From Reclinomonas americana ATCC 50394 (taxonomy: Eukaryota), in the NCBI GenBank assembly GCA_048213135.1, contig PS015292.1, positions 1 through 52,243 of the forward strand: DNA of 52,243 nucleotides. Direction: 5' to 3'. Under the pieces are notes generated by a model. It worked only from the letters and a program-made list of their open reading frames with translations, did not search any database and was not told the origin of the DNA. This document shows positions 12 through 50,204 of the stretch, piece after piece. Within the stretch, counting starts at the first letter, position 1; each line of letters opens with the position of its first letter. Both the position numbers and the translations under genes were made by a program.

Positions 12-1851
12 TTATTTCAGCTTGCCACCCGGAAGGCCACCCGACTGCTCCGCGAGCGCGTCGTGCTTGGCCTTGGCGTCGTACTGCGGCGCGAGGCGGC
101 CGTACTGCACAATGACGTCCTCCGGCTTGAGGTCGCGCTTCTCGAACGTGCGGGTGAGGATGTCACGCACGCCGTCCGAGTAGCGGCGCTGGGCGTCGAG
201 GGTGGTGCCAGAATAGTGCGGCGTCAGGGCGTGGTTCGGGGCATTGCGCCACGGGTGGTCAGCCGGAGCCGGCTGCGGCCACCACACGTCACCAGCGTAG
301 CCGGCCAGGTGACCAGACTGAGAGTGCCAGAGTGCGTCAGCACGCGGAGCAAGTGATCATGAGAACACACAAACACTCACAACACCGACCTTCAGAGCCT
401 CCACCAGGGCGTCGCGCTCCACAATCTTGCCACGGGCAGTGTTGACGAGGTACGAGCCGCGCTTCATCTTGCCGATCAGAGTGCGGTTGAACAGGTGCTC
501 AGTGGCGTCGTGCAGCGGGCAGTTGATGGTCACCACATCGCAACTGTATTAATGGTGAGCGCACAATCGACAACATCTTGATATAGGGACGCACGCGACG
601 CAACGTCGACACGAGCTCATCCAGGCTGACGTAGCGGGCGCCAAGTTGCTTCTCCGTCTGTGCATCCAGACGGGCGTAGTCGGAGTACAGCAGCTCCTTG
701 CAGTCGAACGGCTTCAGGCGCTCCAGCACACGGCGGCCAATGCGACCGGCACCGACGGTGCCGACCACCTTGCCCTCCAGATCATAAGCGCACGGGTACA
801 CACCGACAATCGACGCCACGTGCCACTGGCCAGAGACGATCTGCTTGTAGGCGGGGATGTAGTTGCGGACGAGAGCGAGAATCTGCATGACGACGTGCTC
901 GGCCACCGAGACGACATTGCAGCCGGTGACCTCGGCCACTGCACACGAAAGACAACAACCGTCAGGCTCGTGCATGCATGTACAAAAGACACGTGCGTGC
1001 ACACGCGTACCGGTGATGCCGTACTCGCGGCAAGCGTGCAGGTCGACGTGATCCGACCCAATGCCGGCCGTGATCGACATCTTCAGCTTCGGCGACGCCT
1101 CAATGCGTGCCCGGGTAATGTACGCCGGGTGGAAGGGAGTCGAGATGACGACATCCGCGTCCTTCAGCTCCTTGTCGAACTCAGAGTTGGCGCGGTCCTT
1201 GTCGGAGACCACCACGAAGCTAACCCGCCGCAGAAGTCAGCAGCGATCGACGCAATGCAGAGAATGACACGACGACGTACCGGTGGCCACGGCTCTCCAG
1301 GAACTCACGGATGCCGAGCGCATTTTCGCGGCAACCCAGCAGACGCGGGTTCTTGGCAGCCTCAGCGCCGGCCTCGTAGAAGCTGTGTGCCAATAAGCAG
1401 TGAGCGTCATGACGCGGAGATGATGGACAGAGAGAGGGGCTCACCAGCCGACAATCTTCAGCGGCTGTCCCGACGACAGCGCCGCCAGATCGCGGTGCTT
1501 CGACGAGAAGTTGCGCACAGAGCTGTGGCGAGAGAGTGAGTGAGTGTTTGCCATGCGCGTGTGTTCATTTCCACCGACCGCGCTCACGCGACCCCACGCG
1601 CTTGTGCATGAGCGCTCACTACCACTCCCTGTATGCCAGCTGTGTGCTCATGCTCTCTGTGATGTGTGTGCAGCGTGGCGATGCGTGCCGAGATTCTCGT
1701 GTGACATGCGGAGAAAATCACTTGTCTCGGCATTCTTCGTGTTGCGCACGTGCTTCCCTCCCCTTCCGTTCTCTTTTCTGTACAAGAGATACTCTGCGTG
1801 TGCAACAGAGAAGAAGGCCGAGACAACTCACCGGCTCAGTCGCGCCAGCAT
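12..1851 (-). CDS. FDH: NAD-dependent formate dehydrogenase with predicted mitochondrial presequence (7 exons)
   Basis: The spliced product begins MLARLSRSVRNFSS...LKIVGCFYEAG. It contains [34 protein letters not shown], Rossmann [22 protein letters not shown] and PHYSGTT. Six GT-AG introns restore the frame. The stop is TAA at 12-14. Confidence 0.95.
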
Positions 1852-3062: not shown

Positions 3063-5462
3063 ATGTCGAGCNNNNNNNNNNNNNNNNNNNNTCTCCTCCT
3101 TCTCCTCCTCGTGCTCCTTCTCCTTCCCCACCTCGCCTCTGTGCGCTCACACACGCACACATACAGAGACATCAAGGCCAGCAACCTGCTGGTGTCCAAG
3201 GAGGGCGTGGTGAAGCTGTCGGACTTTGGTGTCAGTGCGTGGTTGGTGGACTCGGGCGATCGGCGGAAGCAGCGACAGACGTTTGTGGGCACGCCGTGCT
3301 GGATGGCGCCAGGTGTGCATGCTTGCGCACTCCTCTGCTGGACACGGGCTCTTGAGCTGACGTTTTGCACAGAGGTAATGGAGCAAACGCGAGGGTACGA
3401 TTTCAAGGCCGATATCTGGTCGCTGGGCATCACGGCGCTCGAGTTGATCAATGGACGAGCGCCGATGCAGGATCAGGCGCCTATGAAGGTGCTGATTACG
3501 GTGCTCCAGGGGCCACCGCCGACGGTTGAGTCAACGGCCACGCCCGAGGTGGCGGCGGGCGTGTCCAAGTATTTGAGAGATTTTGTGGCTCAGTGCCTGC
3601 AAAAGGACCCGGCAGCGAGGTGCGTGTTGGTGTGCTGCGGGGAGAGAGAGAGAGAGAGTGAGAGAGGAACACGAGACTGATACTTGGCGTGTTGGCGGGG
3701 CAGACCAACGGCGGCGCAGTTGCTGGGACACAAGTTTGTGGCGTCAGTCAAAAAGCCTGAGGCCGTTTTGAGGGAAATTCTCGCGCACTCGGCGTCCTAC
3801 GCGGAGCGCGTGCAGGTAGGACTCAGTTACTGTTCCTACGCCTCGTTTCCATGCATCTCACTTCTTCTTAACAGCGCATGGTACGAGAACGGGAGGAGCT
3901 CATTGCACGGCAAGCAGAAATGGTGCCGTACGGAGCGCCGCCCGTGTCGGCCGAGCTGCTGACCGCGTTGCCGACTGTGCCTGATGGTGAACTCGCCGCC
4001 CCTCTCGCATATTGGCTCCCTGTCGTGTTATTCATCGAGCTTGTGTGTGTGCGTGTGGCAGAGTCGTCGCTGGTCACCATTGGTCGCAATTCGTTGAGAA
4101 AACCGGAGAGCATCGAGTGGGATTTTGATGACGAACCGCTGCCGACCGCAACTGCTGCGGCGGCTGCTGCTGCTCCAGCAGAGGGCGGAGCTAGCGGGTC
4201 GGGTTCTGCTGGTGCGCCAGCAGCGATTGCGGTGCCGCCGATTGTTCTCGGTTCAGCCGTCGACGACCGGTCACCCGCGGTGGAGGCGTCGTCAGCAGCC
4301 ATGGCTGCGGCCCCGGCTGCGCCAGCACATCCGCCAGCATCGGACGACGATGGGACGGAGGCTTCTCGGGTGCGTGAACATATGCACATGTGTTTGTGCA
4401 TGGAAGAAGAAAACTGTGCTCACACGTACTCGTTTTTTTAGGCGGAGCGTGTGGTCGAACAGCGCGGTCGGTTTACGGTGGAGACCATCGAGCACCCTGC
4501 AGGGGGACGTGACGGCGAAGGGGGAAGTGCTGCACGAGATGCACCTCCAGAAGCAGACGCACCACTGGAGAGACCTCACAGTTGTGTGGCATTTGCGTGC
4601 CCTCTTCACTCTCTTTCACAGCTTGCTGATCCCCTTCTCTCTCTCTCTCGCTGTACAGTCAGCAACACCCCTCCCAGCAGTCCGTACGTGACGCCTGGAG
4701 GTGGCGGCGATGGACCACACCAACCATTCGCACTGGCACCATCAACAGCAAGTGCGACGGCTGCCGCCGGCGGAGCTTCTGGTGCGGCCGCGAAGCCGCC
4801 CAAGGCCAAGCCGTCGCCACTGCCCGCCGATATTGCACCNNNNNNNNNNNNNNNNNNNNNNNNNNNNNNNNNNNNNNNNNNNNNNNNNNNNNNNNNNNNN
4901 NNNNNNNNNNNNNNNNNNNNNNNNNNNNNNNNNNNNNNNNNNNNNNNNNNNNNNNNNNNNAATGAGGCGTACGAGCGGTGGAGGCGGTGCGGGCTCTGGG
5001 TCGTCGGCTGCCCACGGTCTCGATCTCACGTTTTCCGACTCGGCCGCGGCGTCGGCGACCGTGCCGAGTAATGCGGCGGGACACGGGGCTCCCACCAATC
5101 TGCACGTGGTCGCTCCACCACACTCGGCGCCCAGCAGCGGCGCACCGAGTGGCAGCTCGTCACCCGAGTATCACGGCCACATTGCCGCATCGCCACCACG
5201 TGGTACATTACTCGGCACTGGTGTACTTGGCGAGCTCGGCTCCCCGCCCTTTGTGCAGCCAACGGTGCGCGATTGATGCAGCGTGTTTATATTGTGGGGA
5301 GTAGGTTTGACGGTATCCGCTGACACGATTTTATTGCGTGCGCTGTAGAATCGAGTCACGCTGCTGGAGGAGGAGGTGGCGACTCTGAAAGCGAACCTGG
5401 AGACGCTCACGGCGGAGAACCAGCGACTGAAGCGTGAGTTGGAGCGAAGGGGTGAAGAATGA
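3063..5462 (+). CDS. STE20-family (OSR1/SPAK/plant MAP4K-like) Ser/Thr kinase; N-lobe lost in a gap
   Basis: Motifs RDIKASNLL, DFGVSA, TFVGTPCWMAPEV, GYDFKADIWSLGITALEL and PMKVL are present. The tail has EWDF and RGRFTV and ends in a coiled coil with TGA at 5460-5462. The start at 3063 is inferred, since it abuts the gap at 3072-3091. Confidence 0.88.
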
Positions 5463-18290: not shown

Positions 18291-19379
18291 TCATCTTGGC
18301 GTCGCGTGCGCCACAAACAGCGACAACACTTGTTCTACGGCGGTCCAGGTGAGAGCGGCGGCGGCCGAGCGTTTGAGCATGCGCGGCACGAGGCCGGCAA
18401 AGAGGCCGGCGAGCATGCCGCGATCGCGAATCAATTGCTGCGCACAGTCCCAGTACAGCTGCGGGGTGACGCGCGTGCCCAGCAGCTGCACGCGCGTGCG
18501 TAATGCATCAAACGGCTGCGTGACACACGAGGCCACGGCACCCGACGCAAAGCCCGCGACAGTCGGCGCCAATCGCCGTCGCCATCTATCGCCTCCTTCC
18601 ACCGCGTTCGTCGTTCGATGATTGTGACTGCTGGCGAGCGCCAGTGACGAGTAGCTGCCGCCGCTCAAGTGCCGCAGCAGCACCGAGTACGACGCCAGCG
18701 TGATGGCCGAGTACGGAGCATCGCGCAACTGTGTTGTCAGTGAGAGACGCGCGCGGCAAGGAGTGAAGACAACAAGAGCGCGCAGTGACGCAACGACCGT
18801 CGGCACCAAGCCAGCGACCATTCCCCGCCACCCACGCTCTCTCAGCACCTGTCGCGCCACCTCGCGCATGCTGGAACCCTCGGTGCCTCGTCGCGACTCG
18901 TTCTCCAGTCGCGTTTTGATGACGATCAGCGGCATGGTCAACGCCGCCGCAATCGTGCGACTGGCAAAGCCCGTGACAGCAGTGACGCTCACCGGCAGTG
19001 GCGACGAAGGCGCAATCGACAGAAGCGATCGAGAGGCGTCGGAGAACACGCGCACACTGCCAAAGTAGAGACCGGATCCGGGCACAATCCGCAGCAACGT
19101 CGGCACAGTGCCTCGCCTGACGCACACACAGAGTCAGTTGACGTCATGTACACCAACGCTTAGTGTGTGTGTGTGTGCGTTTTACCAGAGAGCGCGGGTG
19201 CCGCCTTCCCTGTACACCGCCTTGGCCACGTCCCACAGACGCACTCGCTGCTGCTGTTGTGCAGGCGAGGTATTGTGCGCGGCAATTACGCGTGTCTTGA
19301 GCACGTCGAAGGGTTGCAGAAGCACGCTGGTCACAGTGGCGGCGGCGGAGCCCGAGAGCACCTGCTGCACGAGCGTCAT
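18291..19379 (-). CDS. SLC25A38: Mitochondrial carrier, SLC25A38/Hem25-like (putative glycine carrier), 3 exons
   Basis: Three carrier signatures (QPFDVLKTR, MPLIVIKTRLE, QPFDALRTR) plus subfamily-like LWRGTVPTLLRIVPGSGLYF, LRDAPYS and GLVPRMLKRSAAAALTW. Confidence 0.8.
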
Positions 19380-19446
19380 TGCAGAGAAAGAAAAGTCCCA
19401 CACGACGCTGTTGTCCCACGACAACTTCATTGAGCTTCTTGTTAAA

Positions 19447-20080
19447 ATGGACGACGACGACGTGCATGTGGAGTTGGCTGATCTGCAGTACTATGAGGTG
19501 CGTGCGACTGCGCGCAGTGAGCTCACCTCGTTGTGCGCACGCGCGCGCGAGGTGCATGCCATGTCGCTCACTCTCACTCCCTCTTATTGTTATTGCGCAG
19601 CGTGCTGTGACACATGGAGCAGCTGCTGCTGACTCTGACGACGAGGGCAGTGTGGATGGACGCGCGCCTGTGTCAAGCGCGGGTCCGTCGACCCCAGTTC
19701 GGTCCTCTTCGCAGCCTGGTCACGTGACCTCGCCCATCCTGGCGCACCCGACCACGCCCTCTCGTCGTGGTGGTGCGCCGCAGCAGCCGGGCTCTCCCAT
19801 GTCGCCTGGGGGCGGCGCAGGCATGGACATGTCGCATGTCGTGCCCACCTCGGCACTGGAGATTGCCGTGGATCGCTTCCTGCGCTCACTGCAGGAGGCC
19901 ATTGCACGGGGAGACACGCATGAGTGTGCATTGTTGTACGAGCATGAGTTCCAGATGCTGACGGAGAAGCATTTTGCGTCGACTGAGTGGCCGCACCCCG
20001 ATTGCGCCCTCGTGCGCTCGATTGCGCGTGACGATGCCATTTTCGAGATGTGCTATCAGATCCTCTACTACCGCCACCTG
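19447..20080 (+). CDS. EIF3L: Translation initiation factor eIF3 subunit L, 5' part (truncated by a gap)
   Basis: LLYEHEFQMLTEKHFASTEWP and DDAIFEMCYQILYYRHL match the eIF3L N-terminal conserved block. The ORF runs into Ns at 20081. Confidence 0.8.
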
Positions 20081-20233
20081 NNNNNNNNNNNNNNNNNNNN
20101 NNNNNNNNNNNNNNNNNNNNNNNNNNNNNNNNNNNNNNNNNNNNNNNNNNNNNNNNNNNNNNNNNNNNNNNNNNNNNNNNNNNNNNNNNNNNNNNNNNNN
20201 NNNNNNNNNNNNNNNNNNNNNNNNNNNACGCCG

Positions 20234-22850
20234 CTATACCACAAGATCTTGGTCCATTCTGAGGAGACGTTGCACGCATTCACGAAACACGGGTCGTGCC
20301 TGCGGCTGCGAGCTGAGACAGTGACGACATAGTTGATTAAAGTCGGGATGGATGTGGTCGCCGGCGTGCGCCGGCAGCTGCAGCATGCCCTCGCCTCGAG
20401 ATTTGAGGGCTACTAGTCGCAGGCCGTTGTGCGCAAAAGCACCGTCGTAGGGTACACGCAACGTCGCCAGCTCGTAAAGAATCACACTGAGAGGATGTTG
20501 TCAGTGCACTGAGAAGAGAGAGAAGAGAGAGAGTGGGCTGCGAACCCAAAAGAATAAACATCACACTTGGCCGTGTAGTCCATGTCACCGCTCGGGTCGA
20601 ACAGCTCCGGAGCCATCCACTGCACAGCAGTGAGCAAGAACAATGGATGACCGTGGCAGGCATGTGTGAGGACTGACCTCAGGTGTGCCGGCCACACTGG
20701 TCAGGCGAGAGTTGGAGCAGCGCGAGAGACCAAAGTCGGCGATCTTGGGGTTAAAGTTGCTGTCCAGAAGAATGTTTGGACTCTTCAGGTCGCTGTGGAA
20801 ACCGTGTTAGTGATTCGGAGGAGAGATGGTGGCGCTCACGTACTTTCCACAAACCGATGATAAATGGGCGGTGACAATGAATGCAACTGTGTGGGGAGTG
20901 ACAAAGCAAGCGCACAAGTCAGACCAGACTCGCAGGCAAGCTGTCTTCAAGCGACACCAAACAATACACGCACATGCAGCATTCCACGTGCCACGCCCAA
21001 TGCTATCCGCAAGGCGATTTCCGGCCTCCGCAGCTCGTCGCGTCGTGCATTCAGGCTGTCGCACAGACTGCCACCCGGCAAGTACTCCATCACAATGGCT
21101 CGCCGTAGTGAGCCTGCACACGGCTCAGCACGCTACTCACAGTCTGTTGTGAAGAATATTCCAGTCAAACGCACCATTGCTCTTGTCCACGCAGATGCCG
21201 AGCAGCTGGAGAATGTGCGGATGCCGCAGCGTGGTCAAGATGCGAAGCTCGGCAAGGAACGCCTTGAATGCCTCGCCGTCGACACTGTGTACTTGCTTGA
21301 TGGCCACTGCATGCACATCGTGTCAATGAAACCACCAGCAGACGAAGAGGCACAAAGCACCGCAGACTGCATCCAAACCGTCGGTCGAGTGCCACGTGCC
21401 GAGATACACTTCGCCGTGCGCGCCTTCGCCGATACGCCGCTCAAACTGCAACTCGTTGAACGGAATGCGCATCGGACCGGGATTGAGCCGTGGTGATACT
21501 TGCTGCGCGGCGTTCACCAGCAGCCCAAGGTGAGAACTGAGCGACGAACGACGGCGAGGCGAACACTACCGCGCACCGGTGACACTTCATTGGATCCCGA
21601 CTGGTACACGTCCAACAGCGCCTGATTGATCTGGTCGTCGTTGTTGACGGCATGCTCGTGTGCAAAACCACGCTCACGCGCCAGCCACTCCGCCTCTGCC
21701 TTGAAGTACCATCCGACGACAATCGCGAACAGCAGCATCTCGAACACCTGGCCCGTAAAGTACACACAATAGCCGGGACAGCTGCGCAACGTCAGCCACG
21801 AGAACACGGCCGCGAACGCCATATCCACGGCGACAAAGCCCACAGTTATCAGCTCCACCGGGCGCACACGGGAGAGTGGCGGATGATTCGGTGACATGCC
21901 CCACAGCAGCATGACCAGGAACTCGATCAGACCAAACCCGGCAATCACCGACACGTAAATACCATAGGCGTAGCGTGCCGAGCTGCCATCCACCGCCCGC
22001 CGTCAGCCACACGCACCAGGCACAGAGCACACACATATGCATACTGACCTGTCGATGTACGCATCGGGATGCATCTCCACATCGTCCTCGTCGGGAAACG
22101 GGAGCAGGAAGATCATGGTGACGCTGACCGTCAGCGACAACGTCGTGGCCACAAACAGCGCGTACGTGAACGGTCGTGGCTTCGTGTACAACACACGCTG
22201 CAACGATGAATCGCCACATCAGTTGGCCGCGACAGTGTAACACGGCAAATCGCACGACACATGTGGCAGCACCTTGAAGATCGGGCGCAGCAGCAGTGAA
22301 GTCAACAGACTGACTTGCCCCGAGAACACCACAAAGAGATGCACGTAGAGCGGAAACGAGGGTGCTGCAAACGCCGCACTCGTAGTGATCCACACCAGCA
22401 GTGCAGCCCCGAGGAACCTGTCCACGAAGAGAATGTGAGCAATAACACCTTCTTTTGCGTGCGTGCGAGAGAGAGACGCAACGAGAACTGACTACGTCGG
22501 AACCAGCTCTTTCGCATGCCCGCAAACATGACGAGGATAATAGACACACCAATGACACAGGCAGTGGCAAAGGGGAACACAAAGAAGTCTACAATAAGAG
22601 AATGAATGAGTCGAAGAGAATGAGTGAGCATGACGAGCAGTTGCGCCCAACTGTTTCCGTCGTTGGGTGAGTACGATGCCCACTTGTGGCATTGCAGAGT
22701 GCTTGTGTTGTTGATACACTGCTGCACCCCTGTGTGTGCGTGAGAGAGAGAGAGCGAGTCAGTCTGTGAGTCAATGCGTGTTCTTGTTCTGTGTGGTGAA
22801 TGTGAGTCGCAACATAGTTGAGGTACGAGTGGAAGCTCAGGAGCCACCAT
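20234..22850 (-). CDS. Seven-transmembrane domain fused to a TKL-group protein kinase (about 13 exons)
   Basis: The spliced model gives seven hydrophobic segments, then IGEGAHGEVY, VAIK, HRDLKSPNILL, DFGLSR, AGTPEWMAPE, DVYSFGVILYEL and ARP. The stop is TAG at 20234-20236. The start codon is less certain. Confidence 0.8.
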
Positions 22851-23040: not shown

Positions 23041-25335
<2,295 letters not shown>

Positions 25336-25370
25336 TCTCTCACACACACTCTCGATTTGATGGACGACTG

Positions 25371-25380
25371 CGCGGGAAAA
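25371..25380 (-). promoter_or_regulatory. E2F-like element TTTTCCCGCG upstream of kinesin-13
   Basis: Matches the TTTSSCGC consensus, about 35 nt upstream of the ATG at 25335. Confidence 0.4.
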
Positions 25381-25490
25381 ACGATTTTGATCTTGGGGAC
25401 GACACACTGTGACTTCGCATGCAGTTATATACACTCGCCAGCCTCTCTGCTGTGCAACTCTCTCTAATATCGCCGGTGGATTGTGGTCAA

Positions 25491-25779
25491 TTACTGTGCA
25501 TCGGTCGACGCGGTGGCTCTTGGGTGGAAGGCTTCGGGAAGCACGTCGGGCAGGTCTCGTACGCGGTGAATGACTGACACGCGCACGCGCGGCAAGGGTT
25601 AGTGTAGCTAGTCAACTGACGCGAAGTGGGTGGTGCACTGACGCAACTGTGATCGGCCGAGGGGCAGTCGGTGATCTCGTCGGAGACGAGCACGGTGATG
25701 AAACCGTGTTCCTTGGCGCACTTGATATTCGGCACTGCACACGTGAGGGAGAGGTCAACGATGCGACACGTAGAGCAGA

Positions 25780-34000: not shown

Positions 34001-35221
34001 TCACCGCCACTCCCTCTCCGTCACACATACACTCATGTGTGGGCGCAACTTGCTGAGCACCGCATTGTAGACGGCGTACATGTTTTCGAGAATGAACTGC
34101 ACAAACATGGGAGCCGACGACTTGGTGGGCGGCTTGCGCAGAATGCGCTTGGTCTTCGGGTCCAGATAGAAGAGCCCGCCCAGCGCCTTGACCAGCACCT
34201 CGTACTTCATGCCAAGCTTCTGCGCATACAGCCGCGCAAAATCTGACACGCGAAACGCCCACCCGTCCACCGCCGACGCGAACGCCACATTTCCCCTCTC
34301 CAACGAGAAGAACGCAGTGCTGTCGACTGCATCGGTGATATCCTCGCCATCTTCACCAAGCGCGCCACCCACCTCCAGCACTCCCTCGTCGACACGCGCC
34401 ATAATGTCGGCATTCTGCGCGCAAGTGTATGTGTGAGAGAGAGAGGCAGCGCGATGCTGCGGAGGATGAACGCAACGTAGAAACTCGACTGAATGACATT
34501 GGTGGCCTCGAGAATGGTGCGCACTTGATGAAAGGCCTCCAGTGGCGACAGCCGCAGCTCGGTGATGAGCTTGTCGAACTTGTTCAGCACCAGACACGGA
34601 GCAAGGTTCTCACGCCACGCCTGCCAATCGCCCCCCTCAGTCTCCTCTCGTGCATGCTATAGCTCACAAAGGAGACGTACCTGTTCCAGCACCGCACGCG
34701 TCTGCACACACACGCCCTCCACACAGTCGACCAACACCACCGCTCCGTCGCACAGACGCACCGCCGTCGACACCTCACTGGAGAAATCCACATGCCCCGG
34801 CGAGTCAATCAAATGCACCAAGTACCTCTCACTCGACGCAGGCACAGGCGCGCTATCACTGCTCCCACTGCTGCTCCCAGGCGCCTGCTCAGCAGGCGCC
34901 GGCACTTGCTGCTGATGAATGAGTGCAATGGAGCTTGATTTCATCGTGATTCCGCGCAGCTGCTCGTCTGGGCGCGAGTCCATAAAGCGCACTTTGCCGG
35001 CGATCTTGGGCGAGATGATGCCATTGGAGGAGATCAAGTGGTCACTGAGCGTCGTCTTGCCTGCAGGCACGTCAAAGTGCGTCAGTGTGACTGAATTTAG
35101 TCTCTCTTTCTCAGCGTGGCAAACCGTGGTCCACATGCGCCAACACGCAAATGTTGCGCACGTGCGTGGCGTCGCCGAGAACATCGCGCAGATCGCCTGG
35201 TTGCACAGCGATGCGATGCAT
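31021..35221 (-). CDS. EFL1: Elongation factor-like GTPase EFL1/RIA1 (60S maturation)
   Basis: [106 protein letters not shown] and C-terminal [10 protein letters not shown]. Confidence 0.95.
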
Positions 35222-35287
35222 CTCTGTCGGTCGCTGATGTTACGAGGGCGTGACAGTGCGAGACAGTGCGAGTCGTGCACAGGAAAA

Positions 35288-35297
35288 CGCGGGAAAA
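35288..35297 (-). promoter_or_regulatory. E2F-like element TTTTCCCGCG in the EFL1 / DUF4614 divergent spacer
   Basis: The same decamer as at 25371-25380, within a 93-bp head-to-head interval. Confidence 0.4.
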
Positions 35298-35314
35298 GTG
35301 ATCGTTGGTCATAC

Positions 35315-38300
35315 ATGTCGAGCAGCGATGAGGAGATCGATCTCGACGCCTCTGGCAGCGAGGACGACTATCAACCGCCGCCGCAACGGCCGATTACGCG
35401 ACATGGAGCACCGCCAATGCCGGGTCCGACTCGCCAGGCGTCGTTTGCTCAGCGTGATCCTTATGCCTCGCGACTGAGGTCTGTGTGCTGTTCTCCTCTT
35501 GTGTGCGTGTCTGTGCTCATGTGTGTTGTGTAGTGAGTCGCCGGCGTGGGCGGGTGGTGGAGGAGGTGCTGGACGGCCGGGAGATGCACTGGCGCAGGCG
35601 TTGGCCAATGCGCAGCGACGAAAGGCCTTGGAGGCGCAGCAGCAGCAGCAACAGCAGCAGCAGGCGATGGCCAGGCAGCAGCAGCAGGTGAGGCGCGGTG
35701 GTCCACTGGCCTCGGATCAGTTGGCTGCCAAGGTATGTGAGCAAAGTGTGTGGGACTCTGGTGGCGATCCTCACGCGTTGTCGCTTGCAGTTTCAGGCCC
35801 GTGATCGACTTGCCGGTGCGTTCATGTGTCTGTGTCTGTGTGGCAAAGCGTGTAGCGGCGACTGAGACGATTCGTGTGCAGTTGACTCGGACAGCGACTT
35901 GTCGGACATGTCGCCGCCGATGTCGCGGTCGAGCCGGCCGACGTTGTCTGTGTCTGCGCCACCGCCGCCTGGTCGATCGGCGGCCGCGGCTGAGCGGTTG
36001 TTGGCGGAGAGCGACTCGGACAGCAGTATTGAACGAGTTGCGTGCTCTCTGCTCTCTCACCTCACATCACATCACGCACCTTTGTTAACCTGGTCCGCGC
36101 ACGCCAGATCATGCGCGATCACTTGCCGGCGAGGGCCAGTGCACAGACGGTGACGAGGCAGGCATCAGAGCCGACTCTGCGCTCGGCACTGCGCACCGAT
36201 GCTGGTGGCGTGATCCGATCGGACGAGTTTATGCGCTCGAGCCGCGAGGACCGGCGACGACTGGTCAAGTTCAAGGAGCCGTCACCGAGTCCCACTCGAC
36301 CGCTCGGGTCCACCACAGTGAAGACACCGGCGGGCCAGTCGGCCGCGGTTGCGGCGCCGGCGCCCACAAACTTTTCCGCGCTGAGTTTCAAGGCGTTCAC
36401 CGCCACTGCAGAACCCGCGGCGCCGGTGCCCGCTGCTGCAGCTACGGCCTCGCAACCACCTCGTGTCGCCAAGAGCAACTCTGCGCCGCAGTTGAATGCA
36501 GCCGCGGCCACGCCGGCTGCTTCAGTACCGCCAGCGCCGGCAGCGCTCGCCGCCAGCAGTGCGCCAACAAAGCGCATGCAACTGCCGGCCTCTGCACTTC
36601 AACTGCAGGGCAACAAGCCACTCGGCTCCACCGCTGCGCGTGTGAGTGCTTCTTTCGCTTGCCATGGCGACGTGAATCGTTCTGCATTCTGATTATTTTT
36701 TGTGTGTGTGTGTGTGCAGTCAACGAGTGCAGGACCGGCAGCCACGACACCGACAGCGTCTCGCTTCCTCACCGCCCCTGCCTCACCGGGTCTCGGGGAC
36801 TCGCTGTCGGACGAAAGCCTCTCCATCGGCTCACCTTCGGTGCTCGAGTCGACTGACGACGAAATAGGATCACCAGTGGCTGCACGAGCGACACTCCAGT
36901 CGCGACTGACTACTGCACCGACCACTGCTGCTACTGCTGGTAGTCGTGTGGGAGTTGCTGCGCGTGCTCCAGTCGTCGAATCGGACGAGGAAATCGAGGT
37001 GGAGTCGGAGGAGGAGTTGAAACCGATTCGCAGAGGTGGTGGTCCACCAGCAGCTGCGCTGGCACAGGGAGTCGCCCTGGCGCGTGCGGCTGCTGGTGCA
37101 GGTGGACCACCGATTGCAGCAGACAAGGGAGGACCGAGTATTGGAAGGGGAGCTGGTGTTGCTGCTGCAGCTGGACGTGGCGGTGCTGCTGTTGTTGGTG
37201 GAGGCCCTATGATTGGTGCTGGCAGAGGAACAACTACTGCTGCTGCTGGCAGCGTTGGTGGTGGTCGTGGTGGTGGTGGTCCACTGTTGCGTGCAGGACA
37301 GGCAGCAATTGGTTCACCTCCCACGCCGCCATCGTCGCCTTCAGAGGTCGAAGAGGACACACCACCAAAGATAAGTGCGGTTGCTGGCCGTGGTGGTGGT
37401 GGAAGAGGTGGAGGTGGCGGTCCGCTACTTCGTTCCACTTCACTGACTACGGGAATCGGAGGAGGAGGAGGAGGAGGAGGAGGGAAAAGTGCACCGGCCG
37501 CAGTGCGATCGCCGCCGAGTCCGCCAAGTCCATCATCGGAAGACATTGATGTGGACAGTGATGAGGCACCACGAAAACCATTCCGAGGCGGTGGTGGACC
37601 ACCACTGGCTCGGCCTCCGCAGGCGGCAGTCTCGGCGTCGCCAGCGAGGAAGCCAGACGTGCCCGGCAAGGCTGCGAGTGGTGGTGGTGGACCTCTGCTT
37701 GCGCGCTCTGTGGACACTGCGTCGTCCAAGGGTGGTCCGCTGATGACGCCCGCTGCTGTGTCGAGGTCGACAGAGCAGTCGCCTCTCGCGGCGCAGTCGC
37801 AGCAGCAGCGAAGGAGTCTGGACGGACCCGCCTCCATCAGTGGCCTCTCCTCCATTTCTCAGGCGTCACAGAACGACTCGGCGAGCGACATTTCCGTGTC
37901 GATCTCGTTCGAGGGGAGCTCCATTGCGTCAGAGGACGGCATTAGCAACAAGCCGAAACCCGCAGCGAAGCCTGCCGCTGCGCCGTCACGTGCTTCAGGT
38001 GCTGCCGGCTTGCAGTCGGGTGCGGCTCTCGCTGCTCTCGGTAAGAAGGCCGGATTCATGACGGTGGCCGACTTGAAACCGGCGGGAGACTCGGCCGACG
38101 AGGTCGAATCGCTGCCACCCACCGAGTCGGAAGTAGTTGCGTTTTGTCGACACGCGCAAGTGAGGTGAAGGAGGTTGGCTGACATTGTCGCAGAGCGAGG
38201 TGGAGAGCGCAGTGCAGAGTGAGTCCGACATGTCACATCGTGGCAGTCCGCCGCAGCGAAGCACCGGCGGTCGTCCCACGGCGCAACGCAGACGATCACC

Positions 38301-45000: not shown

Positions 45001-48000
45001 AATCACCCAGAGGTGATGCCGTCGGTCGAGGAGGAGGAGGAGATGCTTGTCGGTCATGTCGGTGACGAAGGTGTGCAAGGGGTGGAGAAGTACAGTTGTC
45101 ATCGCTCGTGCTGAACGCCATTTTCACAGGAATGGACGACGATGGTGCACAGGCCGCCATGTCCATGTCGCTGTGCTCGGAGGACAAGATCGGTGGCGCG
45201 CCAGCGTGCGCCGGTGGCGATGAGTTCTTCAGCAGCCCGCCGGCATCACCGGGCATGCCGGGCGATGAGCGTCGCTCGCAAGGATGGCCTCGCTCCACTN
45301 NNNNNNNNNNNNNNNNNNNNNNNTCAGCCCTTCAAAGTCCGCCTCCAGCGGCGTTGCGTCGTTGAACGTCGTCTTGTGAGCTACGTGGCTCGTCTCACTC
45401 TTCGTCTGCGCAGAGGGGACGCAGCAAGCATCACCATCGCACAGCAGCTCATCGCGCGGCCGTCTGGAGGCTGCCCTCAGCAGCGCCCTGAATTCTCAGT
45501 CGCAAACAGTGCTCATTGAGCCGCTGGCCACGGTCGGCGCCATTGAGGATTACGTGACACAGCGCATCGAGAAGGTTGGCGGACGCGCATCTTCGGCCGA
45601 CGACGACGGTGGTGACAGGTGCGATGCTGGGCACGCCTGTATTTTCTACCGCATTCCATCCACTGCTAACCTTCTCTTTGTCGTCTCCCCAGTCGCAGCA
45701 GCTCCGACGAACGCACCCGCGTCAATGTGATGATCAATGGTGTGGTGTTGAGCCGCGCACTGACGGTGCTGCAGGCGATTCACCAGTTCGAGGAGCACAG
45801 TTGCGATGGCTGTGTGACTCACTTCTTCATTTTTTGTAATGCTCACTTTGATGGGCGCGCAGGTGGCGCTGAGTCTACTGCGTCCCCCAAGAACGGCATT
45901 CGCCACTTGTGGGATCGAGGTGTGTGCATGGGTGCTGTTTTGTTGGTGTCCTTCTCCTTCAACGGGTCTCTCACTCTGCCTGCAAACACACAGTGCACAC
46001 CATCGAGTACACGGTTGGCGCTCGTACCTCCCGCCGCATCAGCACCTCCATGGGACCGCCGCTGGCCGCGGCCGCAGCACATCGTCGACGCCGCGCAGCG
46101 CCGCACAAGAGTCCAGCGTCTTTTGTGTCGGTGTGTATCTGTCTGTACTTTGTTGACCATTGTCAAGTCGTGCTGTGCTGATCGCCGCTGTGCGCGCGCG
46201 CGTACGTAGGATGCTTCGGAGTGTCCAATTCAGATGGGCGTGGGCCCATTGGGTGCCCTCGAGCGTTTCATGAGTGAGCTGGCGCTGCGACAGCAGAGCG
46301 CCGACACCGATCCGCTGTCGACAGAAGCGACGCGTGCCTACGGCCACTACGACAGTGGTGATGCCGACTGCGATGCAGCGCTCGCCTTGCTGTCGACCAT
46401 CACTGCTCTCAGCCAGTACGCGCCTCTTCTCCTGCAGTATTCGCATCCGCTGGTGGACGACTTGTTCGATGGTTCGTTCCACCCAGGCAGCCACGCGTTA
46501 TGACACCTGTGCTCACTCCTCGCTTTGTTGTCGCAGAGGAAGACGACGATTCGGTTCCCACGCAAATGGATGCCGATGATGCACCGGCCGCGGCTAGCGG
46601 TAGTACGGTGTGTCTCTCTAATTGTGTTGGAAGAGAGAGGAGAGGAGACGAGGCTGGAGACTCACAACTGTCGTACAGTCTCTGTCGATTGTCACTCCGA
46701 CATCTGGCGAACCGGCGGCTGCCAGTGGAGATTCCGCGACCAAGGGGCTCTCGGCTGCGCGTGCCAAGGCCATTGCCGCCGCTCATGTGCCACACAATCT
46801 GTTGTACAGCCCGCAACTGACGGCCAAGTTGAGCCGACAGCTGCAGGATCCCATCTTGATTGGCTCCGGAACGGTGCCGGAGTGGTGCCTCGCGATTCCG
46901 CTGCACTATCCGTACCTCTTCACGCTGGAGGCCAGGTTTGTGCGCGCACACACACAAGTATGTGACGTGCACTGTCCGCCTATTCATCCTCTGTGTGTGT
47001 GCAGGCGTCTGTTTGTCAGCATGACGTGGACAGACTCGAACCGTGCGCTGTCCAAGCTGCAGGACATGTTGGGTGATCGTTCTCCGTCGTCGGACGCACC
47101 ACGACCTGCACGGGCAAGGAAACACAAGATCCGCTTGTCACGCCATCGCATGCTCGAGTCGGCGATGAAGGTGATGGAGGTGTATGGCCAGCAGCGCGGT
47201 ATTCTCGAATTCGAGTACTTCCACGAAGTGGGCACTGGACTGGTGAGCAGCGAGAAGGGCGGTTTCCACTGGCTGCTGGTACTCATCTCTTTGTTGGCAG
47301 GGCCCAACCATGGAGTTCTACGCGCTGGTCTCGCTGGCGCTCCTCCACCGTCGGCTACGCTTGTGGTGGGACATGGGCGACTCGCGTGATCCGCGCAGCC
47401 CGCAACGTACCAACAGCGGCAACTTGCTCAGTGCGACCGGTTCACTGCTGTACACGCCAGGGTCGCCACCACCGTTGGCTCCTTTCGAGGAGAGTGATGG
47501 TGGTCGTCGTGACAGCGGCATCTTCATGGCGGAGGACGAAGAGGAAGGCGGTGATGGTGCGCATCACATGTTGGCGGATGGCGAAGACGAGGAGTTTGGT
47601 GGTGGCGATGGTGGCGACGACGAGGATGCTGGAAGCCCGCGTTTGTCTGCCGACTCGTCGCGTCGTTGCGTACGCAATTGTGTTCTCGCATGTCTGTTTT
47701 TTGCTAAACTTGCACATTGCCTCTTGTCTTCATTTCACGCGCCTGCAGGAGAGGTTTGGTCTTTGTCATGTCCCTCCCAGCAGAGGTTCTCTTGAAGCTT
47801 ACTCTTTGTTTTCCTCTCTCAACGCAGGAGCCTGTGCCGACACCGTTGAGTCGCGATGCGCTGGATGGCGACCGCTACGTGCAGTCGCCATTTGGCGTGT
47901 TCCCGCGGCCCATCGATCCGTCCAAGCCGCCACCCATCGTCATGTATGTGAGTGTGGCGGTGACGAATCACTCAGCCGACGATCCCGATCCCGAACCAGA

Positions 48001-50204
48001 AGACCCGGATGCGGAGGGTGATGGTGAGGATCTCATGCGGTTTCCAATCTTCGCTTTGCGCCGTTGTGTTGAGTTGTGCTCGTCTCTTGCCGCAGATCCG
48101 ATGGGCGGCAGCGGCAGTGGAGGTGCACGAGGCGACAGTGGACGGCCTGATGCCGAGGTCAGTGCTCCCGGCGAACACGACGACGACGGCGATGACGACG
48201 GTGGTGCGGAGAGCACGCCGGCTGCCGGACCATCAACAGCGGCCGCAGGTGGCAGCAGCGGCAGCAGCAGCAGTGGGCGGCCACGCCAGTCGGTCGACTT
48301 GGTGCAAGTGTTCTACTTCCTCGGTGAGGATGCACAGAAGAAGAACAGTGTGTATGAGAGGGGCAGGTGCTCACCCTTCTTGAACCTTGTACAGGCCGCT
48401 TCTGTGCGCGCTCACTACTGGACGAGCGCCTGCTCGACATTCAGTTCTCGCCCATCTTCCTGAAGGCGGTGTCTCGGCGCGACCAGCCGCTGTGCTTTGA
48501 CGATTTGCACTTTGTCGACCCGGCCCTTCACTCGCAGCTGCTTATGTTCAACGAGTTGTGCGCGGAGAAGCAGCGCATCCTCAACGATCAGTCGCTGGTG
48601 AGTGGATATAACAACCTGTCTTTTACCTTGTCTCTGCCACTCACTCACACAGGCTGGGAGACAGTCGGCGGAGGAGCGGAGAGCACGTGTCAATGCACTG
48701 GGACCGAGTGGATGCCCGGTGGAGGACCTGTGCCTGTACTTTACACTGCCGGGCCCCGACAGCTTTGAGTTGAAGCCACGAGGTGCCGACACGCCGGTCA
48801 CCATCTGGAATCTTGAGGTGTGTGTCGCAGAGCGTAAGTGTGCGTGTGTGTCGTGACGCTCAATGTTTCCCCACCACGCAGGAGTACCTCGAGTTGCTGG
48901 TCAGTGTGATCCTCCACTCGGGTGTGGAGCGTCAGCTGGCGTCCTTCTGCAGCGGTTTCAATGAGATCCTGCCAATCGAGAAGCTGCGCGTGTTTGCCAC
49001 TGCCGAACTCGATCAGCTGCTGTGTGGCGAGCGGCTGATGTGGACTCGACGAGGTCAGTGTGGGAGACTCTCTGTTTTCTGTCCCTGTCTCTCTCTCTCT
49101 CTGCCTCTCTCACTTTATCTGGCTATCTTTCTGTCACAAATGCCTGTCTCCCTCCCTCTGTTATTCGTCCCTCCTCTCTCCCTCTTGCACTCTCTCCCCC
49201 TCACTCGCCCTCTCTCTTCCTCTCTTTCTTGTGAGGCCTCTCTCCGTACTCCCCACCTGCTACTCCTGTTCTCTTTACCTCTCTCCCTTCTCCCTCTCTC
49301 CCTCTCTCCCTCTCTATCTTTCTTCCTAACTCTCCCACACTCTCCCTTGCTCGCTCCTCTCCCTCTCCTCTCCCTCTTCTCCCAGCTCTCTTACTCTCTG
49401 CATCTCTTCCCTGTCGGGCCTCTCTCCCACTCTCTCTCTCTCTTTATCTCGTTCCATGCACTCTCTCTTTCTTTCTCGCTGTCTGTCTGCCTCTCTATTA
49501 CTCGGTCTCTCTTTCCATCTATGTCTCTCCCCTTGCTGTATTCACTCCCTCACCCTCTGTCTCTCTCCATTCTCTCTCACGCTCTTTCTCTCGCATTCTC
49601 TCTCTCTCATCTTGGTAATCTTTACACTTACTCTGTTCTCTCTCTCTCTCTCTCTCTCTGTGAGACTGTCTTTGTCTCTGTCTCGTATTTCTCTCTGTCT
49701 CCCTCACTCATTCCCTCTCTGTCTCGTTTCTCGCTCTGTGCAATAATCTTGGTTCTTCACCTGACACCATCATCGCACACAGATCTGGAGGAGTACACCG
49801 TGTGCGACCACGGCTTCACGCACCAGAATCCCACCATTCAAATGCTCTTCGACATCATGTGCGAAATGTCGCCGGCCGAGCAGCGCCAGTTTGTGCAGTT
49901 TGTGACGGGCACACCCAATCTGCCGGTCGGAGGTGTGTGTGTGTGTGGTGCTGAGCGGAGATGGAGACTGTGAGTTGCTGACCGCGCGTGTGCATGCACA
50001 AACACAGGGTTGAGAAGTCTGCGGCCACCGCTGACAATTGTGCGCAAGACGGGCGAGACCATGGCGCAAGAGGAGGAGTACCTGCCTTCGGTGATGACGT
50101 GCACGAATTACCTCAAGCTGCCGCAGTACACCAGTCGCGACGTGATGCGGGAGAAGCTCACGTTTAGCATCAGCAACGGGCAGGGATCGTTCTACTTGTC
50201 GTAG
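42025..50204 (+). CDS. ARM-repeat HECT E3 ubiquitin ligase, UPL3/TRIP12/Ufd4 type (about 30 exons)
   Basis: [79 protein letters not shown] and catalytic [17 protein letters not shown]...GQGSFYLS*. Confidence 0.94.
49054..49782 (+). repeat. 729-nt CT-rich low-complexity intron of the HECT gene
   Basis: G|GTCAGT...CACAG|AT joins LMWTRR to [12 protein letters not shown]. The interior is degenerate (CT)n. Confidence 0.85.

Follow-up and report, generated by a model that had tools for sequence, protein, structure and literature searches.

The minus strand of a 52,243-nucleotide (nt) stretch of Reclinomonas americana ATCC 50394 DNA (contig PS015292.1 of assembly GCA_048213135.1; the whole stretch is called the window here) carries at positions 20234..22850 a gene whose predicted product joins a seven-transmembrane (7TM) domain to a TKL kinase. 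This 7TM-TKL gene is real and probably intact, and the reading we favor, with moderate confidence, is that of a single intron-rich gene of protist type encoding a polytopic receptor-like kinase. The layout has precedents in several microbial eukaryotes, and what appears to be new is a membrane domain that resembles no known family. We rebuilt the spliced frame from the window by exon joining and translation, which confirmed an earlier sequence-only reading of this locus. That reading had described one spliced frame in which a short N terminus with an NNTS sequon and two cysteines is followed by seven hydrophobic segments, a linker of about 60 amino acids (aa) and a TKL-type kinase with VAIK, HRD and DFG intact, and all of these elements, including each of the seven quoted segments, were recovered in the spliced product.

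The preferred gene model (model B) has 13 exons leading from an ATG at 22850 to a TAG at 20236-20234 (Table 1), with a coding sequence of 1791 nt that specifies 596 aa and contains no internal stops. All 12 introns are of the GT-AG type and measure 58-87 nt, with a CAG acceptor in 11 and a TAG acceptor in one, and a CTNAY motif occurs in 10 of the 12, mostly 15-36 nt upstream of the intron 3' end. The donors are unusually loose (GTTGCG, GTTGGG, GTGCGT, GTTTGG, GTCAGT, GTTCGC), with a G at +5 in 9 of 12, and the introns frequently contain (CT)n or (CA)n runs, as at 22730-22813, 22418-22482 and 20487-20545. When stop-to-stop open reading frames (ORFs) are considered, the kinase subdomains and the hydrophobic segments are spread across three frames, which is the signature of a spliced gene. 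By codon position (1/2/3), G+C amounts to 0.55/0.42/0.73 for the TM half and 0.64/0.42/0.67 for the kinase half (0.54 for introns), and because this pattern is common to both halves, both look coding and appear to belong to the same genome. In a tblastn comparison of the model with the window we recovered only its own locus and a weak match to another kinase at 3129-3464. Intron 3 would be 65 nt long in model B (GTTGCG...CAG, with a CTCAC lying 22 nt before its 3' end); a 47-nt version with an AAG acceptor (model A) was set aside for the candidate with the CAG acceptor and the branch-like CTCAC motif. Since intron 1 is in frame and free of stops, read-through is possible there and the first 12-40 residues are uncertain.

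We assign the kinase to the TKL group and to its Ser/Thr type, the catalytic loop reading HRDLKSPN and not a tyrosine-kinase loop. The motifs follow one another as GEGAHG (332-337), VAIK (349-352), AELRIL, HRDLKSPN (449-456, with HRD at 449-451), DFG (469-471) and GTPEWMAPE (485-493), so that the catalytic set of G-loop, β3 Lys, αC Glu, HRD...N, DFG and APE is complete. Successive exons match positions 1-21, 32-73, 77-116, 127-153, 170-190 and 225-258 of the Pfam family PF07714 (PK_Tyr_Ser-Thr) in order. Colinear matches to PF07714 or PF00069 (Pkinase) were obtained on all six kinase exons scanned, PF07714 scoring above PF00069 on four of them, and it is this colinearity that fixes the position of the six introns inside the kinase domain. 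Against PDB sequences, the exon bearing the catalytic loop and activation segment gave Arabidopsis CTR1 as the best match (E 1.1e-6), ahead of Pto, IRAK4 and RIPK2; the β3-αC exon found tyrosine kinases first (EGFR, CSK) and then the TKLs CERK1, TAK1 and LIMK2, and the C-terminal kinase exon gave weak matches only. Taken with the Pfam results, the best solved relatives (CTR1, IRAK4, RIPK2 and TAK1) indicate a TKL. A Thr also occupies the position equivalent to T201 of PKA, a feature linked to Ser/Thr activity (Goldberg et al. 2006, PMC1420674; this and the other papers are cited here from extracts).

Ahead of the kinase, the spliced product contains seven hydrophobic segments (TM1-TM7, Table 1), preceded by an N terminus of 38 aa in which the NNTS sequon occupies aa 19-22. 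Seven Kyte-Doolittle 19-mer peaks (≥1.6) fall within about 230 aa, compared with a background of 1.49 per 1000 aa in the six-frame translation of the whole window, and six of the seven share one reading frame of the unspliced DNA. This excess, the clustering in one frame and the coding G+C pattern together place the seven segments beyond chance. A CPGYC(V) motif (aa 240-245) lies ahead of TM7, and from the end of TM7 (near aa 266) to the glycine loop of the kinase (aa 332) there is a linker of about 55-65 aa. The only cysteines of the 7TM part are at 17, 26, 49, 240 and 244, and the helices of exon 6 carry three acids in mid-membrane positions (E192, D225 and E253), with outer loop 2 also acidic. 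The three inner loops contain 4, 4 and 2 Lys or Arg residues (10 in total), whereas the N terminus and the three outer loops contain 1, 0, 1 and 1 (3 in total) along with nine Asp or Glu residues. Loops rich in Lys and Arg face the cytosol according to the positive-inside rule, and the charge asymmetry thus predicts an N-out/C-in topology, with the 7TM N terminus outside and the kinase in the cytosol. A kinase lying outside the cytosol had been named in advance as the outcome that would speak against a receptor kinase, and the count of 10 inner to 3 outer positive residues points the other way.

Fusion of the two halves in one gene is the economical reading, and their presence on the same polypeptide would depend on intron 6, whose splicing we infer. 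Exon 6 spans TM5-TM7 (the end of TM7 lies at about 21700) together with the first 41 aa of the cytosolic tail without interruption, and intron 6 has the size and splice-site style of the six introns inside the kinase domain. Were intron 6 left unspliced, the 7TM frame would reach a stop at 21516-21514 and the first Met in the kinase frame would lie near 21471. It could therefore be argued that the fusion is an artefact of the gene model and that a 7TM protein ending at this stop and a kinase starting at this Met are two adjacent genes or cistrons, as both alternatives are open in the DNA, the genome is compact (about 190 nt separate the stop of the upstream kinesin gene, at about 23039, from the ATG at 22850), and the splicing of intron 6 is deduced from sequence, not RNA. 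However, the stop at 21514 and the kinase-frame ATG are about 43 nt apart, which leaves no room for two genes, being much too short for a 3' end and a promoter, and a kinase beginning 7 residues ahead of its own fold would be unusual. The candidate intron 6 moreover agrees in length, GTGCG-type donor and CAG acceptor with the six kinase introns whose positions are fixed by homology. We consider two separate genes improbable.

At the 3' end, the contig breaks off 6 nt past the TAG in a run of N (Table 1), which limits what can be said about this end of the gene. The locus might be incomplete or misassembled and the true protein might possess additional C-terminal domains, a view to which we give very little credence. 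It gains from the position of the break, from a convergent plus-strand gene that enters the same gap with no continuation beyond it, and from the DEP domain found in 8 of the 17 G-protein-coupled receptor (GPCR)-TKLs of P. infestans (PMC5784254); yet the stop falls about 12 residues past the last kinase subdomain, as at a normal end, and neither GT just ahead of it (GTGGTA, GTATAG) has the +5 G that 9 of the 12 donors show. A longer C terminus for the kinase protein is unlikely on these grounds. The convergent coding region occupies 19301-20080 of the window on the plus strand and runs into the gap with the last stretch ...FEMCYQILYYRHL. Its sequence is reminiscent of the eIF3 subunit L N terminus, though Pfam gave no match. 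Because this gene does not continue past the gap, the gap at 20081-20227 probably far exceeds its 147 N, or else marks a misjoin.

Table 1. Features of the 7TM-kinase gene and of the adjoining assembly gap (window positions; residue numbers refer to the spliced product of model B)
Feature	Position	Strand	Content
Exon 1	22814..22850	-	Start codon, aa 1-12; least certain exon
Intron 1	22730-22813	-	84 nt, donor GTTGCG, acceptor CAG, in frame, stop-free; (CT)n/(CA)n low complexity like the gene's other introns
Exon 2	22652..22729	-	Outer N-terminal segment; NNTS sequon, Cys17, Cys26
Exon 3	22483..22588	-	TM1 (aa 39-61), then inner loop 1 with 4 K/R; end in model A, 22496
Exon 4	22273..22417	-	TM2 (aa 75-95) and TM3 (aa 100-120); start in model A, 22448
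Exon 5	22049..22197	-	Inner loop 2 (4 K/R), TM4 (aa 136-157), acidic outer loop 2
Exon 6	21577..21982	-	TM5 (aa 179-201), TM6 (aa 214-234), CPGYC, TM7 (aa 243-266), first 41 aa of cytosolic linker
Intron 6	21503..21576	-	74 nt, GTGCGC...CAG; putative junction of 7TM half and kinase half
Exons 7-13	21502-21379, 21306-21175, 21113-20974, 20886-20855, 20792-20678, 20619-20546, 20486-20234	-	End of linker and TKL kinase domain
Assembly gap	20081..20227	.	147 N, starting 6 nt past the stop codon; limits statements on the 3' end

The membrane domain was then compared with known families, using either single exons or a TM2-TM7 read-through with intron inserts as queries, which limits the power of these searches; TM1-TM4 were compared with Pfam only, plus PDB sequences in the case of TM2-TM3. 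At E≤1 no Pfam family came up with the four TM exons, nor did any at E≤10 with the 280-aa TM2-TM7 read-through. None of the classical GPCR profiles (rhodopsin-like, secretin-like, class C, cAMP-receptor-like and Frizzled) was matched by the exons or the read-through, and a likeness to TPRA1/GPR175, suggested in the sequence-only reading, found no support here, all that is held in common being a short C-x-G-Y-C-like string ahead of TM7 and the likeness itself an impression. Among PDB sequences the TM5-TM7 exon and the TM2-TM3 exon had no matches at E≤10. Similarity to transporters or channels was likewise absent from Pfam (TM exons at E≤1, read-through at E≤10) and from PDB sequences, which is absence of evidence only.

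Wider searches gave a similar picture. With phmmer, the TM5-TM7 exon found no true relative among 1.84e9 protein representatives at E≤0.001, a threshold that would miss remote similarity; the lone match was spurious, a protein with no TM segments whose score accumulated from 12 tandem repeats, each worth about 5-6 bits. A word-index search with the same exon against longer proteins yielded 431 candidates, none of which scored, the index being weak for short exons. A scan of metagenomes with exon 6 gave 97 pattern matches, of which one passed tblastn, and this lay in a non-coding frame of a bacterial contig and was attributed to chance. The top scores in the ESM Atlas were 0.88 and 0.87, with no receptor family among them, and Rfam had no matches in the window. 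At the level of these comparisons the 7TM domain is an orphan with no detectable relative.

Two specific families were also considered. In type I (microbial) rhodopsins a Schiff-base Lys lies in the middle of TM7, and a rhodopsin-enzyme fusion was rejected, as the sole Lys of TM7 here (aa 243-266) is K266 at the cytosolic end. Transporters of the SWEET/PQ-loop type have a 3+1+3 arrangement with an internal repeat relating TM1-3 to TM5-7; the local score between these parts of the product was 34, a value that 94 of 500 shuffles reached, and this candidate too was rejected.

If the protein is a receptor, its short N terminus would lie outside the membrane, probably glycosylated, and the seven TM helices would lead through a cytosolic linker of about 55 aa to a catalytically competent TKL kinase of the Ser/Thr type (Raf/CTR1-like). 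The helical bundle would sense a signal at the membrane, perhaps a cation, an amine or a pH-type cue, which we propose because of the mid-membrane positions of E192, D225 and E253 and the acidic outer loop 2. The resulting change could be passed via TM7 and the linker to the kinase, through a conformational change or through dimerization, and phosphorylation by the kinase would follow, on targets in the cytosol or on the loops of the receptor itself, with no need for a heterotrimeric G protein. More speculatively, and with less confidence than we attach to the receptor-like kinase as such, the 7TM domain may represent an unseen receptor fold-family that arose, or diverged past recognition, in a poorly sampled protist lineage and was independently fused to a Raf-like kinase, with E192, D225 and E253 forming a pocket that senses cations, amines or protons and acts on the kinase as a direct switch. 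This proposal is a tentative one that we hold to be possible but doubtful; if true, it would add one more independent origin of single-chain 7TM-kinase signaling.

The same features can be accommodated by a protein that senses no ligand, in which the seven-helix part, be it a membrane anchor or a module of transporter- or channel-like type, would hold a TKL kinase that is constitutive or regulated in some other way at a particular membrane, which might be an internal one. The missing match to any Pfam GPCR family would be expected of such a protein, as would the lack of a conserved cysteine pair between TM3 and outer loop 2, and the three mid-membrane acids would suit ion binding or transport equally; the GPCR-TKL class is, in addition, defined operationally and not by demonstrated receptor function (PMC5784254). 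On the other hand, no transporter or channel family of Pfam was matched either, the 3+1+3 repeat score lay within the reach of shuffled sequences, and seven helices in an N-out/C-in arrangement behind a short glycosylatable N terminus constitute the classical receptor layout. An anchor or transporter-like module is in our estimation rather unlikely, and a receptor-like kinase remains the reading that we prefer.

Several points nevertheless weigh against this preference. The receptor character of the 7TM part draws no support from Pfam, from PDB sequences or from relatives among the 1.84e9 representatives. The splicing of the gene, like the acidic triad and the type of ligand, has been read from the DNA and its translation, and the junction of exons 1 and 2 and intron 3 each have frame-preserving alternatives. 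A single-sequence AlphaFold2 model of the TM2-TM7 read-through, which included two unspliced in-frame introns and X at TGA codons, reached a mean predicted local distance difference test score (pLDDT) of 41.8 and a predicted template modeling score (pTM) of 0.26, and is too poor for use. Finally, word-index protein searches with the C-terminal kinase exon (93 candidates) and, at E≤10, with the 46-aa kinase exon (86 candidates) left none that scored, again with an index that is weak for short exons.

The surrounding DNA is eukaryotic in character, with a G+C content of about 0.55-0.63 per kb, eight N gaps and dense genes with short introns. The upstream neighbor is a kinesin gene on the minus strand (23041-25611; Pfam Kinesin motor at 23542-24105, E 1.4e-22), whose coiled C-terminal exon ends about 190 nt ahead of the ATG of the 7TM-kinase gene, a spacing that indicates a compact genome. 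Among ordinary housekeeping neighbors, a mitochondrial carrier lies at 18294-19133 (minus strand, E 4.8e-36). A second, unrelated kinase gene at 3102-3677 on the plus strand (Pkinase, E 1.4e-25) is broken by a gap of 20 N lying upstream (3072-3091), and has weak similarity to the kinase of the 7TM gene (26% over 114 aa). Elsewhere in the window are a D-2-hydroxyacid/formate-dehydrogenase-like enzyme (502-1236, minus strand), an EF-Tu-type GTPase domain (34660-35367, minus strand, E 1.1e-30) and a HECT ubiquitin-ligase gene within 46600-50000 on the plus strand (PF00632, E 1.6e-13 at 49701-49970). The HECT gene includes at 49000-49700 about 700 nt of (CT)n-rich low complexity with one frame open (GC skew -0.40, AT skew -0.51), which is probably a long microsatellite-rich intron. 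At 36600-38170 long ORFs overlap on opposite strands, a proline-rich one of 419 aa on the minus strand and a glycine-rich one of 491 aa on the plus strand, with no Pfam match for either; only one of the two can be a real gene, and a formin- or WASP-type region might account for the proline runs.

Fusions of 7TM domains with kinases had been called rare in the sequence-only reading, which is an overstatement in the light of the literature. The extract of van den Hoogen et al. (2018, PMC5784254) counts 17 GPCR-TKLs for P. infestans alone, a DEP domain being present in 8, and notes homologues in Amoebozoa. In Dictyostelium two kinases, 7TMK1 (a TKL) and 7TMK2, are joined to seven TM domains (Goldberg et al. 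2006, PMC1420674), GPCR-type kinases belonging to the TKL clade occur in ciliates and amoebae (PMC10463195), and a 2025 survey describes a cluster of 176 receptors in acanthoecid choanoflagellates, 92 of them with kinase domains, together with GPCR-TKs of both sponges and choanoflagellates (PMC12716839). According to the extract of that survey, unrelated 7TM domains were repeatedly drawn into such fusions, none of which has been functionally characterized; the possible modes of action discussed for 7TM-kinase proteins are, among others, that the catalytic domain is activated directly, that activation runs through G proteins, and that receptor phosphorylation recruits arrestin (PMC6033456). Each independent case bears on the question of whether an enzyme attached to a 7TM bundle can be driven by it independently of G proteins, and the Reclinomonas copy, being compact (about 596 aa), with an intact kinase and a very short outer surface, would offer a tractable construct for work on topology, autophosphorylation and ligand screening, its value being limited for now by the lack of comparable relatives.

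By architecture the gene would group with the GPCR-TKL bigrams, while its 7TM domain has no detectable relative by sequence. Membership of the GPCR-TKL class has been based on 5-9 TM helices, no likeness to transporters or channels already known, plus an accessory domain (PMC5784254), and the seven N-terminal Kyte-Doolittle peaks found here lie within that range of helix number. Like the oomycete and amoebozoan bigrams, the protein would combine an N-terminal seven-helix domain with a cytosolic TKL-type kinase in a predicted N-out/C-in orientation, with no known ligand. It differs from them in a TM5-TM7 exon for which, at E≤0.001, no relative was found among 1.84e9 representatives, a collection presumed to include the GPCR-TKLs; and unlike the DEP-bearing members, it has no DEP domain within the contig. 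The same fusion logic is found in the GPCR-TKL/K proteins of acanthoecids and in the GPCR-TKs of choanoflagellates and sponges, although the latter differ from the present kinase, which has the Ser/Thr-type HRDLKSPN loop and not a tyrosine-kinase loop. In its catalytic half the protein resembles the Raf-like MAPKKK CTR1 of plants (PDB 3ppz and 3p86), IRAK4, RIPK2 and TAK1, to which the kinase exons match and with which a GTPEWMAPE-type activation segment is common, but those kinases are soluble or single-pass and have no seven-helix domain at the N terminus.

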